In this document: piece after piece, positions 2,093-30,499 of the stretch | Layout: each line of letters opens with the position of its first letter | How positions within the stretch are numbered: the stretch's first letter is position 1 | Assembly (NCBI GenBank): GCA_018057705.1 | Contig: JAGPDF010000007.1 | Coordinates: 1,125-65,124 of the forward strand | Direction: 5' to 3' | Source: Thermoanaerobaculia bacterium | GTDB lineage: Bacteria > Acidobacteriota > Thermoanaerobaculia > Multivoradales > JAGPDF01 | DNA length: 64,000 bases | The notes under the pieces: generated by a model | What the model saw: the letters and a program-made list of their open reading frames with translations, nothing else | What the model was told of the DNA's origin: nothing | Databases searched by the model: none | Program-made: the position numbers and the translations under genes

Positions 2093-3196
2093 TCAGGTGG
2101 CAGCGACCTGTTCCGACTCGTCTTCGGCCTCGAGCGTCGGCGGCAGTCCGAAGGCGGCGAAGAGGTCGGGTCCGAAGGTGAGGATCTCTGCGATCGCCCC
2201 CTCCTCGATCCGCAGCACGTCCATCGCCAGCGCGTTCCAGGCGGGGTCGCCGGCGCGCCGGACGAAGGCCGCCACCGCCGGCAGTCCGTTGGCGCGCGTC
2301 GTCACGCAGCGCAGACGCCCGAACGCCTCCGTGCCGAATCCGGCGTCGACGAACATGCGGAGGATCGCGTCGCGGCCGGCGACGACCCCCACGTCCGGAT
2401 CCGGCGGCATCCGGAACAGCGCGTCCTCGCGGATCAGCGAGACGAGCATCGAAACGTCGGGCCGCTCGGCGGCCTCGACGTAGCGTCGCACCAGCTCGCG
2501 CTCGCCGTCCCCGGCGTCGACACCGGCCGGCCACGCCGGCCGGCGCGGTGGGAGCTCCTTCCGCAGCGTCGCGCGCGCCCGCTGCAGCGCGCTGTTCGCG
2601 GCGGCGACGGAGAGCTCGAGCAGATCGGCCGACTCCTTCGCGGACCAGCCGAGGACGTCGCGCAGGATCAGCGTCGCCCGTTGCAACGGAGGGAGCCGTT
2701 GGATCACGGTGAGGAAGGCGATCTCGATCGTCTCGCGGGTGAGTGCGAGGGCTTCGGGCTCCGAGTCGCGCGGCGCTATCGGATCGAGCGGTTCGAGAAG
2801 TGCGTCCGGGAACGGCTGGAGCCAGGCGATATCGGCAAGCGGGCCGGCGCCAGAAGCTCCGACTTCGGAGGAGGCCGCCAGCGCGGTTCTCCGGGGATCG
2901 CGTGCGATCGCGTCGAGGCAGGCGTTCGTGGCGATCCGGTAGAGCCAGGGGCGGAGCGGCAGGCCCTCCTTGACGCTCTCCCGATAACGCCAGGCGCGCA
3001 GGAACGTCTCCTGCACCGCGTCCTCGGCGTCAGAGAGAGAGCCGAGCATCCGATAGCAATGGACGAGCAGCTCGCGGCGGCGGCGCTCGACGAGCGCCGT
3101 GAAGGCCGTGGCGTCGCCGCTGCGGACGGCGCCCCCCAGCGCCGCGGTTTCGTCCGTCTCGTTCGGGGTCGTCTTTTCGTTCATTGCGCTTCCCAT
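2093..3196 (-). CDS. ECF-type RNA polymerase sigma factor with a ~170-aa C-terminal SnoaL/NTF2-like extension (ECF41/ECF56-like architecture).
   Basis: Region 2 ([17 protein letters not shown]...[17 protein letters not shown]) and region 4 ([39 protein letters not shown]); GGGAGGA RBS 5 nt upstream of the ATG at 3196; no adjacent anti-sigma gene. Confidence 0.85.
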
Positions 3197-3326
3197 TCTG
3201 TCCTCCCACGGCCCGGTGATCTACCTACGAGAGCTGATACCGCGAAAACCCTCGAAACTCATCGCCCGCACCGGGGAGCCGAAACTCCCGGTAGGCTCCG
3301 TCGCAGACAGGAAGGAGATCTCTCCG

Positions 3327-27736: not shown

Positions 27737-28969
27737 ATGACGGACACACGCCAGGCGGATCTCCGCAATCTGATGAAGCGCGTCGAGCAGCTGGTGCGCG
27801 AGATTCAGTCGGCCGACGAAGTCGGCATCACGATCTACAACCTCGCCGATGCGATCATCTCGCGCTTCCGCGACGCGTTGGGCTTCTACGGCGGCCGGCT
27901 CTACCAGTGGGACGGCGAGGCCTACGAGCTCAAGGCGATCTTCCCCGACGCCCGCCCGGCGGAGCGCGAGATCCGCGTGCCCGCGACTTATGCGCCGATC
28001 GAGATTGCGCTCGCCGAGGGCGTGGTCTACATGGACTCGGGCGATCCGCGCTTCGACCACAAGCTCGAGGACCAGCTCGGGGTCGACCGCTTTGCGGCGA
28101 TCGAGGTCGGCGACGAGGAGTTCATCCTGTCGTTCGACGTCGCGCCCGGCGTGCATCGCGACGAGGTGCTGTTCTCGCTCGGCGTCCTGCGCCACGGCAT
28201 CAACCAGAAGCTCCGGCAGGAGCGCATGCAGGAGGTCTTCGATCAGGCGAGGAAGATCCAGGCGTCGATTCTCCCGCGCCGCGTGCCGGTCTACGGCGGC
28301 TTCGAGCTCTACGGACGGATCCAGCCGATGGAGTCGGTCGGCGGCGACTTCTACGACTACATCCCGATCACCGACAAGATCCTGGGCCTCGCGATCGCCG
28401 ACGTCTCGGGGCACGGATTGCCGGCGGCCCTCCAGGTGCGCGACATCTACATGGGCCTGCGCATGGGGATGGCGCGCGACTTCAAGATCGTGCGCACGGT
28501 CGAACGCCTGAACCAGATCATCCACAAGTCGACGCTCACCAGCCGTTTCGTCTCGATGTTCTACGGCGAGCTCGAACCGAACGGCGTCTTCATCTACGTC
28601 AACGCCGGCCATCCGCCGCCGTTCCATCTCTCGGCCGCGGGCGAAGTGCGCTACCTCGACGAAGGCGGCGCGGTCCTGGGCCCGCTCGCCGACGCCACCT
28701 ACGAGCGCGGCTTCGTGCGCCTCGCCCCCGGCGACATGGTCGTGCTCTACACCGACGGCATGATCGAGGCGACGCCCCCCGAGGGCGACGGCGAGGAGTT
28801 CGGTATCGAGCGCCTGGTCGAGATCGCCCGCAAGTCGACCGGCAAGAGCTCGAAAGAGATCGGCGAGGCGATGATGAAAGCCGTCGAAACCTACCGCGGC
28901 GAAGGCGAAGCCCAAGACGACCGCACCGTCGTCGTCGTCACCTACCCGCAGCCAGCGCCGGGCGCCTGA
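27737..28969 (+). CDS. PP2C-type serine phosphatase (RsbU/SpoIIE family) with an N-terminal sensory (GAF-like) domain.
   Basis: PP2C metal-binding motifs (GGDFYDY, DVSGHG, ...YTDGMIEA..., DDRTVVVV). It is the tail of the artefactual 976-aa ORF. Confidence 0.8.
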   Translation: MTDTRQADLRNLMKRVEQLVREIQSADEVGITIYNLADAIISRFRDALGFYGGRLYQWDGEAYELKAIFPDARPAEREIRVPATYAPIEIALAEGVVYMDSGDPRFDHKLEDQLGVDRFAAIEVGDEEFILSFDVAPGVHRDEVLFSLGVLRHGINQKLRQERMQEVFDQARKIQASILPRRVPVYGGFELYGRIQPMESVGGDFYDYIPITDKILGLAIADVSGHGLPAALQVRDIYMGLRMGMARDFKIVRTVERLNQIIHKSTLTSRFVSMFYGELEPNGVFIYVNAGHPPPFHLSAAGEVRYLDEGGAVLGPLADATYERGFVRLAPGDMVVLYTDGMIEATPPEGDGEEFGIERLVEIARKSTGKSSKEIGEAMMKAVETYRGEGEAQDDRTVVVVTYPQPAPGA

Positions 28970-29138
28970 CGCCCTAGCAAAACGCCTTTCCGCACGGCAG
29001 TTCGTCAGCGAGAGGACTCGCTTGAAGGGGAGCGGCGGCGATTCTCGCCTTGAGCTTCTGCTACCTTGGAAGCAGCGAGTCCGGAGACCTGGTCGGGAAC
29101 GGCTCAGCTTCGGTGATGCAGCGTCCTGTTCTCAGCGT

Positions 29139-29594
29139 TCACCCGTAAGCATCGATCTCGAGCTTGATTCCGAGGTCTCCCAATGCCTTCATGGTTTCGC
29201 TGGCGATAGAAAAGCCGTGGTTGCCGTCTTCAATACCGAAGACACCAAGAAACAGATCCATCTTGTACCCCTGCGCACTCAGCTCCTTCAGCGCTTCTCC
29301 TCGGTTCTGGAGGCGAGCCAGCAATCCGGTGATGTGATCGTCAGGAGCCGCGCTCCGGTGGAGCAACGATCTGATCGACCACATGCCTACCGAAAAGTCA
29401 GCGTACCTGCGACCAGATTGGCCGAGGAGTGGATCGCCAGCGCGATGCGACTCATCGGGAGTAAGCCCCAATCTCTTGGAGACGGTGTCCGGGTCGAGGC
29501 TCTTGTCGAAGATTCGAAGTGACGCGGAATAGGTGACGTTCACTTCAATCGAAGCCACGGAACAGGCGGTCGCGTACTTTGGACCACGGGACAC
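29139..29594 (-). CDS. DUF4279-domain protein. The 5' end probably starts at an internal GTG near 29543, downstream of and adjacent to the antitoxin gene.
   Basis: Strong match to the DUF4279 pattern (LRIFDKSLDPDTVSKRLGLTPDESHRAGD...LLARLQNRGEALKEL...DLFLGVFG...EIDAYG). The gene body has markedly lower GC than its surroundings. Confidence 0.55.
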   Translation of the reverse strand: MSRGPKYATACSVASIEVNVTYSASLRIFDKSLDPDTVSKRLGLTPDESHRAGDPLLGQSGRRYADFSVGMWSIRSLLHRSAAPDDHITGLLARLQNRGEALKELSAQGYKMDLFLGVFGIEDGNHGFSIASETMKALGDLGIKLEIDAYG

Positions 29595-29775
29595 TGGTGA
29601 TCGATCGGGCTTCGAGCTCTCTCACGCGGCGTTCGATCTCGTTCGACCAGGCGACTTCGACATCGGCGTCGGCGCGCACTTCGAGGCTCTCGATCAGCGC
29701 GCCGGCGACGGATGCGCGATCCTGCTCATCGAGCGAAAGCGCTTGCTTGAGGACTTCAGAAGCCGTCGGGCTCAT
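29545..29775 (-). CDS. Putative addiction-module antitoxin (Unstab_antitox / TIGR02574-like), 76 aa.
   Basis: MSPTASEVLKQALSLDEQDRASVAGALIESLE...WSNEIERRVRELE is the typical 'putative addiction module component' signature. Confidence 0.6.
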   Translation of the reverse strand: MSPTASEVLKQALSLDEQDRASVAGALIESLEVRADADVEVAWSNEIERRVRELEARSITSVPWSKVRDRLFRGFD

Positions 29776-29803
29776 GGCTGGGAAAGCATACGCCCCGACG
29801 CAG

Positions 29804-30499
29804 CTAGAGGCGGCGCGTCACGTTCTCGACGATCGAGATCTCCTGGCGGAGCTTGATCAGGCTGTCTGCGGGATAGAGCCCGCTGCGCAGTTGGACGCCG
29901 GTGTAGATCTGGGTGCGGGCGCCGACGATCGTTCCCGGATTGAGGACCGAGTTGCAGCCGACGGCGACCTGGTCGCCGAGGATGGCGCCGAGTTTGCGCT
30001 TGCCGGTCGGCAGGCGCTCGCCGTTTCCGGTGGGGATCTCGATGAGTCTGCCGTCGTGGCGGAAGTTGGAGAGGATGACGCCGGCGCCGAGGTTCGCGTT
30101 GCAGCCGACGATCGAGTCGCCGACGTAGTTCAAGTGCGCGGCGTGGGCGCCGGGGAAGAGGATCGCGCGTTTCATCTCGACGTTGGCGCCGACGACGCAG
30201 CCGTCGCCCACCCAGCAGCCGCCGCGCAGGTAGGCGCCGACGCGGATCTCGACGTCCTCGCCGATCCAGACCGGGCCTTCGACGACGGCGCCCGGCGCGA
30301 TGCGCGAGCCCTTGCCGAGGACGATCCGGTCGCCGACGAGATGGGCGCCGGGATGCACCCGGCCGAGGATCTCCGCCGAGGGCAGCGCCGCGAGCAGCTC
30401 ATCCATCGGAGCGTCGAGGAGCGCCCAGGGGCGCAGGGGATCGTAGCTCCCTGCGAAGGCCGCCGGGAGCTGGGCGAAGAGCTCGGGGAGGCGGGTCAT
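29804..30499 (-). CDS. Left-handed beta-helix (hexapeptide-repeat) acyltransferase-like protein, GlmU C-terminal-like; cotranscribed with galE.
   Basis: Multiple [LIV]-G-x-x-x-x hexapeptide repeats (IGEDVEIRVGAYL, VGDGCVVGANVEM, IVGCNANLGAGVIL); 4-nt overlap with the upstream epimerase gene. Confidence 0.6.
   Translation of the reverse strand: MTRLPELFAQLPAAFAGSYDPLRPWALLDAPMDELLAALPSAEILGRVHPGAHLVGDRIVLGKGSRIAPGAVVEGPVWIGEDVEIRVGAYLRGGCWVGDGCVVGANVEMKRAILFPGAHAAHLNYVGDSIVGCNANLGAGVILSNFRHDGRLIEIPTGNGERLPTGKRKLGAILGDQVAVGCNSVLNPGTIVGARTQIYTGVQLRSGLYPADSLIKLRQEISIVENVTRRL

Follow-up and report, generated by a model that had tools for sequence, protein, structure and literature searches.

Does a small gene that lies directly behind an antitoxin gene, in the toxin's place, encode a toxin? 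The question is raised by an islet of low G+C content (GC) in a stretch of 64,000 nucleotides (nt), here called the window, from a Thermoanaerobaculia metagenome-assembled genome. On its minus strand the islet carries a gene for a 76-residue antitoxin (29545..29775; PF09720, Unstab_antitox, 'addiction module protein'; NCBI MBP9143550.1) and, adjoining it in the NCBI annotation as well, a gene for a 'DUF4279 domain-containing protein' (29139..29543; PF14106, or FdL-Imm5; 134 residues from the GTG at 29543; MBP9143549.1). An original prediction, made from the sequence alone, had described both genes and had pointed out that the RelE- or ParE-type toxin normally paired with such antitoxins is missing; DUF4279 was therefore proposed to be an uncharacterised toxin partner, unless the module was a decayed remnant. 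The description of the genes holds. The antitoxin open reading frame (ORF) is intact and matches the full PF09720 profile (positions 1-54 of 54; E 2.9e-9; 37.2 bits against a cutoff of 23.3), with a weak TIGR02574 match of 27 bits that falls under the 31.9 cutoff. The DUF4279 ORF matches PF14106 from position 2 to 116 of 116 with 69.9 bits (cutoff 25; E 2.9e-19), and contains no stop codon or frameshift. Searches of the whole window by tblastn and with hidden Markov models (HMMs) returned no ParE or RelE, no second antitoxin and no second DUF4279. As it has no toxin gene, the locus does not qualify as a toxin–antitoxin (TA) module.

We consider it probable that the parE gene of a ParDE-type module was swapped for a DUF4279 Rhs-immunity gene, which leaves the antitoxin and the immunity gene both as orphans. 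A horizontally acquired operon of the PF09720 antitoxin and a 98-residue ParE would once have stood between the hexapeptide-transferase and SpoIIE genes, and in a recent ancestor of the window strain parE and its 3′ flank would have been replaced by a 575-bp segment carrying DUF4279. The term 'decayed remnant' thus came close, the pair being of ParDE type, but its parE was replaced.

The replacement itself is seen by comparison with closely related contigs. The exact antitoxin sequence of the window occurs on 22 public contigs with the same neighbours in all, and adjacency of antitoxin and DUF4279 was found only in the window, L001–L010, L041 and L042, where the antitoxin is at least 91% identical. 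In contig L011, whose antitoxin is 86% identical, the gene order is Pur_DNA_glyco, galE-like, hexapeptide transferase, antitoxin, X and SpoIIE, and X is an intact 98-residue ORF (2954..3250) that matches PF05016 ParE_toxin with an E of 3e-11 and starts at a GTG 14 nt within the antitoxin gene. L115 (antitoxin 91% identical) has the same upstream gene and the same 28-nt spacer, and its antitoxin runs into the ParE N-terminus VASIELTWHPDAVAEAEGARDWY before the contig ends. In L041, also with a 91% identical antitoxin, DUF4279 is present as in the window.

The borders of the exchange can be placed to the base. Aligned by blastn, the window and L011 are 84–86% identical from 31441 to 29545, where the antitoxin stop codon ends; nothing aligns between 29545 and 28969, and homology restarts at the SpoIIE stop (28969) and runs to 27600. 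Since the gap in homology falls exactly at 29545 and 28969, a segment of 575 bp (28970..29544), without homology to the sister lineage, was swapped in; L011 has 439 bp here, comprising parE and a different flank. The segment consists of the DUF4279 gene and a 169-bp intergenic 3′ flank (28970..29138, minus strand), which arrived with DUF4279 and is not homologous to L011 3251-3406. Even the start of the lost toxin gene can still be read. The 98-residue ParE of L011, L013, L015 and L016 opens in each case with GTG-GCT-TCG and a 14-nt overlap, and in the window this start is kept (GTG at 29558 and the codons that follow it, V-A-S-I-E; 29545..29558, minus strand, 14 nt inside the antitoxin 3′ end) because the same bases, GTG-GCT-TCG-ATT-GA, are the last antitoxin codons. 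The DUF4279 frame continues from it, so that the window reads VASIE|VNVTYS where the ParE of L011 reads VASIE|LTWHP.

This arrangement bears on the proposal that DUF4279 is a new toxin held by the PF09720 antitoxin in an unconventional type II TA pair. The features that suggested it are present: an antitoxin followed by a second gene on one strand, with a gap of 1 nt or an overlap of 14 nt, in an islet of foreign composition. The tight spacing, however, is inherited from the parE slot, and whilst the pair has been kept in two sub-lineages about 7% diverged (the window and L041), L115 and L011 hold ParE at the same site. Whether the genes are 'overlapping', as had been stated, depends on the start codon: they overlap by 14 nt if the start is the GTG at 29558, but not with the native GTG at 29543. 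The antitoxin stop codon TGA occupies 29547..29545, and the GTG at 29543 opens the DUF4279 ORF 1 nt later. As this start also lies in frame with the old parE start, the two genes are probably co-transcribed and translationally coupled; the DUF4279 gene would then have inherited operon transcription and coupling to the antitoxin as the toxin had them.

The direction of the change was judged from 373 nt of the upstream region and antitoxin, in the four lineages seen at this locus. The window and L041 are sisters (7.0% divergence), L115 comes next (10.5%) and L011 lies outside (11.5–14%). The carriers of DUF4279 therefore nest inside the carriers of ParE, and from the sister grouping of the window and L041 a single replacement in their ancestor suffices. 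Presence and absence at so few lineages give by themselves no direction, and one could suppose the reverse, that the antitoxin–DUF4279 pair is the older and that L011 and L115 regained ParE by insertion. We find this scarcely credible: besides the nesting, all of the more distant antitoxin homologues, in unrelated contexts, carry a 98-residue ParE with the GTG-GCT-TCG start and 14-nt overlap, and the L011 ParE is 60–80% similar to the ParEs of these distant modules and co-varies with its antitoxin.

That ParE is the usual partner of this antitoxin, as had been supposed, is borne out by its wider relatives. A homologue search found 217 antitoxins, many of them named 'addiction module component'. 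Three that are 64–74% identical to the window's (P0016, P0060 and P0074, at loci L013, L015 and L016/L017) are each followed, with a 14-nt overlap, by a 98-residue PF05016 ParE, in genomic contexts unrelated to the window locus. A scan of metagenomes with an alignment of the 44-member antitoxin subfamily returned 63 loci, 57 of them informative, whose downstream sequence was scored with purpose-built HMMs for ParE, DUF4279 and the antitoxin. A full ParE was present at 31 loci and one cut by the contig end at 3; ParE was partial or fragmented at 12 and absent despite sufficient sequence at 10, and a further 6 loci were too short to judge. ParE or its remnants thus follow the antitoxin at 46 of the 57 informative loci, and DUF4279 at one (1/57), a ratio that argues against a dedicated antitoxin–DUF4279 pair. 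Moreover, the antitoxin at that single locus, L042, is the same as the window's (100% identity). The one testable expectation of a PF09720–DUF4279 TA family is recurrent adjacency in unrelated genomes, and the original prediction had named its absence as a refuting observation; at the depth reached, none was found beyond one narrow lineage.

The same scan indicates how a lone antitoxin may arise. ParE is fragmented, truncated or missing beside an apparently intact antitoxin at 22 of 57 informative loci (about 39%), although some of the 'partial' calls may reflect sequencing frameshifts or the narrow, four-sequence ParE HMM. A truncated ParE N-terminus is kept at several of the loci scored as having no ParE (L044, 'VASSNLNWHPEPLDS*'; L048; L056). 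Toxin decay with retention of the antitoxin looks frequent in this subfamily. The window is an example, the DNA that took the toxin's place there happening to code for DUF4279. A more complex arrangement was seen at L043 (1357-2545), where the C-terminus of the antitoxin (79% identity to that of the window) is altered and extended, and where a second PF09720-like ORF (1766-1996) and then a RelE/ParE-like ORF (about 2129-2545) follow downstream, a stacked or rearranged TA cluster.

What, then, is the gene that took the toxin's place? A phmmer search of 1.84 billion representative sequences gave 1326 DUF4279 relatives at E<=1e-3, the closest full-length one only 47% identical to the window protein. 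Most are stand-alone proteins of 130-145 residues. A few have two to four DUF4279 domains in tandem (P0124, P0199, P0204, P0178 and P0183); immunity proteins often carry tandem domains. Two relatives have other N-terminal matches: DUF2947 in P0251, and in P0210 a weak one to HicB_lk_antitox (25.1 bits, under the cutoff of 27). In published comparative genomics, DUF4279 is classed under the name FdL-Imm5 with five other ferredoxin-like families as immunity proteins of polymorphic toxin systems, and has been likened structurally to CdiI of Burkholderia pseudomallei 1026b (PMC9424270). For a PAAR-Rhs-Ntox33 effector encoded by Salmonella SPI-19, it is predicted to be the immunity partner (PMC13304343).

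The genomic contexts of DUF4279 elsewhere agree with these reports. The homologue word-index search was insensitive for this family (2 matches with the single sequence, 27 with a profile). Alignments of 60 and of 12 DUF4279 sequences contain no conserved stretch of 7-10 columns, and genome loci were sought with a degenerate DNA pattern for the motif GRRY[AS]D[FY]xxGxW. This gave 22 loci, of which four have a clear DUF4279 (L018, L035, L025 and L034); L038 reached only an E of 3e-4, and the other loci matched by chance. L025 and L034, in which the contig breaks off at the DUF4279 gene, were left out. In L018, from Thermoanaerobaculia, the final 11 nt of an Rhs/YD-repeat gene also belong to the DUF4279 gene; the Rhs product has a C-terminal extension past the DPxGR motif. 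In L111 it starts directly past the stop codon of an Rhs gene, and a gene for an IcmF/TssM-like component of a type VI secretion system adjoins. In L109 and L035, from Holophagales, DUF4279 lies inside arrays of Rhs fragments and small ORFs, and its neighbours in an array on a Rhizobium plasmid are Imm53, Imm8 and ankyrin genes. Solitary copies were seen in Diaphorobacter, Sphingomonas and Ralstonia and, among the numbered loci, in L106, L107 and L112–L114. In L018, L111, L109 and L035 DUF4279 holds the immunity position, directly 3′ of Rhs toxin genes, and in none of these approximately 12 other contexts is there a PF09720 gene upstream; the antitoxin-subfamily and ParE HMMs likewise gave no match in the genome loci carrying DUF4279.

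One further copy shows that the gene moves independently of the antitoxin. L040 (1-558) carries a copy 93% identical in nucleotide sequence to codons 3-88 of the window gene, with its own ATG (M-L-E-V-T-Y-S...); the DNA upstream is unrelated, low in GC and contains no antitoxin. The copy is cut at about codon 88, where it abuts a GC-rich panE/ketopantoate-reductase-like ORF.

The Rhs proteins themselves point to a specific partner. The C-terminal domains of the Rhs proteins of L018 (3821-5446, minus strand) and L111 (2-1018, plus strand), and of the orphan fragment in L109 (2625-2927, plus strand), are mutually homologous, at 31-42% identity over 76-206 residues with E values of 1e-13 to 1e-27, the link between L018 and L109 being 68% over 22 residues. 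They have in common the motif ...AAVPxxxxGxxAxRxLTKNxxxxxKKLxxDxxxAxxxxHxxK...LFDxxxGxIIxPExGxxxGxLLxxY. Because these C-termini are homologous, DUF4279 recurs with one particular family of toxin domains, which is what one expects of a cognate immunity protein. No Pfam family matches the L018 and L111 domains even at E<=1. The domain of L018, L111 and L109 is a candidate for a toxin domain not yet characterised, with DUF4279 as its possible cognate immunity protein.

The AlphaFold2 model of the DUF4279 protein (predicted local distance difference test score, pLDDT, 97.3) has the element order beta-alpha-beta-beta-alpha-alpha-beta followed by a C-terminal alpha-beta. This order would fit a single ferredoxin-like domain with a C-terminal extension; a Foldseek search of the PDB with the model gave only weak, generic ferredoxin-like matches. 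The residues conserved in an alignment of 59 homologues (W55, together with R10, P18, P29, G36, G53, G100 and Y133) look structural rather than catalytic. The lack of conserved residues of catalytic type, and of any PADLOC match for either the antitoxin or the DUF4279 protein, is a further reason to doubt a new toxin. Continued purifying selection on the antitoxin might be taken as a sign that it still holds a toxin; weighed against the published immunity family, the lineage-restricted adjacency and the L040 copy without an antitoxin, it leaves that proposal very improbable. Instead, the DUF4279 protein is most likely a small ferredoxin-like binder directed against Rhs effectors of the L018/L111 type, whose C-terminal toxin domain it would block and which are presumably delivered by neighbouring Acidobacteriota cells. 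With no cognate toxin in the 64 kb, it would be an orphan immunity protein.

Both orphans appear to have been maintained. The antitoxin keeps all 19 residues that are invariant among the 44 subfamily members and 13 of 14 that are near-invariant, the exception being a conservative Ile for Val. Its ratio of nonsynonymous to synonymous differences (pN/pS), calculated against L041 and L011, is 0.35-0.39 and thus close to the 0.34 of the adjacent hexapeptide transferase, and its sequence is identical across 11 independent contigs. In M. tuberculosis, ParD2 of the Unstab_antitox superfamily is the partner of ParE2 and binds to its own promoter (PMC4906023). By analogy, and as it is still conserved, the orphan antitoxin may still repress the operon promoter, and it could neutralise ParE toxins arriving on mobile elements, an anti-addiction function.

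The DUF4279 gene has a more complex record of divergence. Compared with L041, a metagenomic contig of 994 nt, the window differs by only 4/406 (1.0%) in the DUF4279 coding sequence, but by 6.5-13% in the flanks: 11/142 at the 3′ end of the hexapeptide-transferase gene, 15/231 in the antitoxin, 14/169 in the 3′ intergenic region and 6/46 at the 3′ end of SpoIIE. All four differences are nonsynonymous, whereas about 11 synonymous ones would be expected at the antitoxin's synonymous divergence of 0.12. The low-divergence tract, from about 29574 to 29065, reflects either recent exchange between strains or a chimeric L041 assembled from co-occurring strains; exchange, if true, suggests selection for DUF4279.

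These data can be read in two further ways, which differ in whether the operon is of any use to its host. In the first, neither gene has a function any more: the antitoxin is an orphan, DUF4279 a hitch-hiking piece of mobile DNA, and both are on the way to being lost. The subfamily scan lends this some weight, with ParE partial at 12 loci and absent from 10, as do the truncated DUF4279 copy in L040, the four nonsynonymous and no synonymous changes in DUF4279 between the window and L041, and the absence from the window of recognised expression signals and of a cognate toxin of either kind. But in each of the 12 contigs of the lineage (12/12) the two ORFs have their full length and are intact, the antitoxin retains every invariant family residue with the pN/pS given above, and the DUF4279 protein matches its whole Pfam profile, gives a model of pLDDT 97 and has a pN/pS of 0.33 against L040. 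A tract diverged by 1.0% inside flanks diverged by 6.5-13% also fits recent spread under selection better than neglect. We therefore regard the loss of all function as unlikely, though worth keeping in mind. In the second, the operon is an adaptive 'double antidote', in which an Rhs-immunity gene was captured in the toxin's place, the antitoxin acts as its transcriptional regulator and translational coupler, and the segment spread by recombination; the same tract would then record spread among co-existing Thermoanaerobaculia strains. This bolder reading we hold to be decidedly doubtful. Were it true, warfare between bacteria in wastewater communities would be selecting for orphan immunity, with the locus as a live record of it.

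Several points weigh against the replacement of parE by a working immunity gene, and they concern mainly the function of the incoming gene. Its immunity role here is predicted from homology and context; the contexts form a small sample, approximately 12 independent ones, and the Rhs-linked homologues nearest to the window protein are only 30-42% identical to it. The 64-kb window contains no Rhs/YD motif, no homologue of the L018/L111 toxin domain, no other polymorphic toxin and no second immunity gene. Nothing shows a residual usefulness of the orphan antitoxin, and the all-nonsynonymous changes in DUF4279 between the window and L041 do not look like simple purifying selection. Finally, sequence scans recognised no Shine-Dalgarno sequence, promoter or terminator at the islet.

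Antidotes kept without their poison are known in the form of orphan antitoxins acting as anti-addiction modules and of orphan immunity genes or arrays. The locus resembles these, in that the antitoxin subfamily has many loci with a degraded or missing ParE and DUF4279 occurs alone or in immunity arrays; it differs in that orphan antidotes of two kinds have been joined into one operon by a precise swap. With ParD/ParE modules containing PF09720, such as ParDE2 of M. tuberculosis (PMC4906023), it shares the family and size of the antitoxin, a second gene starting inside or just past the antitoxin 3′ end, and a small islet of foreign composition, and sister lineages keep the complete pair at the same site. 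Unlike those modules, the window has no toxin, only the parE start codon and four further codons surviving inside the antitoxin coding sequence, and its second gene is unrelated to ParE or RelE. Compared with DUF4279/FdL-Imm5 proteins (PMC9424270), the window protein has the same full-length PF14106 match, single domain and size of about 134 residues, and homologues 30-42% identical to it stand in the immunity position behind Rhs genes in Thermoanaerobaculia, in Holophagales and in further metagenomic contigs; unlike the Rhs-linked members, it has no adjoining toxin gene and sits in a TA operon in the toxin's place. An orphan antitoxin and an orphan immunity gene in one operon is a configuration that we did not find described. 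The locus is best called a combination of known kinds, an orphan antitoxin and an orphan immunity gene, with an unusually clean swap of toxin for immunity gene.

Three consequences follow. The locus gives no ground to chase DUF4279 as a new TA toxin, which removes a false lead. It provides a base-precise case of the replacement of a TA toxin gene with the antitoxin kept. Lastly, the Acidobacteriota genomes lend support to DUF4279 being the predicted immunity partner of one family of Rhs C-terminal toxins that is absent from Pfam, a pairing that is directly testable.

The host genes on either side are as originally described: a SpoIIE/PP2C phosphatase on the plus strand, and a hexapeptide-repeat transferase and NAD-epimerase on the minus strand. 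The hexapeptide transferase (29804..30499; Pfam Hexapep, E 1.2e-16) is the upstream gene and the left border of the islet; 28 nt separate its stop codon from the antitoxin start, and it is syntenic in L001–L012 and L115. The phosphatase gene (27737..28969), which is convergent, forms the right border; the PF07228 match was obtained with the 410-residue SpoIIE product called in L001–L011. No insertion scars, att-like repeats or RNA elements were detected around the islet in repeat, tRNA, Rfam, promoter and terminator scans. At the left junction (29541-29550, minus strand) the sequence reads GAT-TGA-A-GTG-AAC and contains a TGAA-G-TGAA-C direct repeat; the window has TGAAGTGAAC where L040 has CTTGAAGTCACC at the same point. 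This 4-nt TGAA repeat may have been left by microhomology-mediated joining, although it is too short to be claimed as such.

The composition of the islet supports its foreign origin, as had been proposed. GC across 29000-29800 is 0.545-0.64, compared with 0.696 for the whole window. When GC was calculated in windows of 575 bp (mean 0.696, standard deviation 0.033), the lowest values in the 64 kb were found at starts of 28976-29126, with a minimum of 0.576, about 3.6 standard deviations under the mean; the replaced segment itself has a GC of 0.583. The dip is therefore real and the deepest in the window, if somewhat generously described as 'far below' the background. Codon usage agrees, GC at third codon positions being 0.67 for DUF4279 and 0.73 for the antitoxin, as against 0.93 for the hexapeptide transferase and 0.92 for SpoIIE, with galE also in the range 0.92-0.93.

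A disrupted DUF4279 ORF had been named as an observation that would count against the original prediction, and this we reject, since the full profile is matched without a frameshift and the short gene calls are start-codon artefacts. Public calls for 29139-29594 on the minus strand conflict, with 81 (Prodigal-type), 134 (PGAP) and 139, 144 or 146 residues (other callers). The 81-residue call, from an ATG at 29384, is such an artefact and cuts the domain. Alignment with 59 diverse homologues places the native start at the GTG at 29543, in agreement with MBP9143549.1, and the alternative in-frame GTG at 29558, which would give 139 residues, is the start chosen for P0001 and L041. One strain may have a disrupted copy, to judge from a cluster member of 40 residues (P0309) that lies on a 76-kb ENA contig. 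On the opposite strand, a 166-residue ORF (29022..29522, plus strand) was considered as a gene and rejected, being antisense to the Pfam-matching DUF4279 ORF and uncalled in public contigs; it is probably an artefact of GC-rich sequence.

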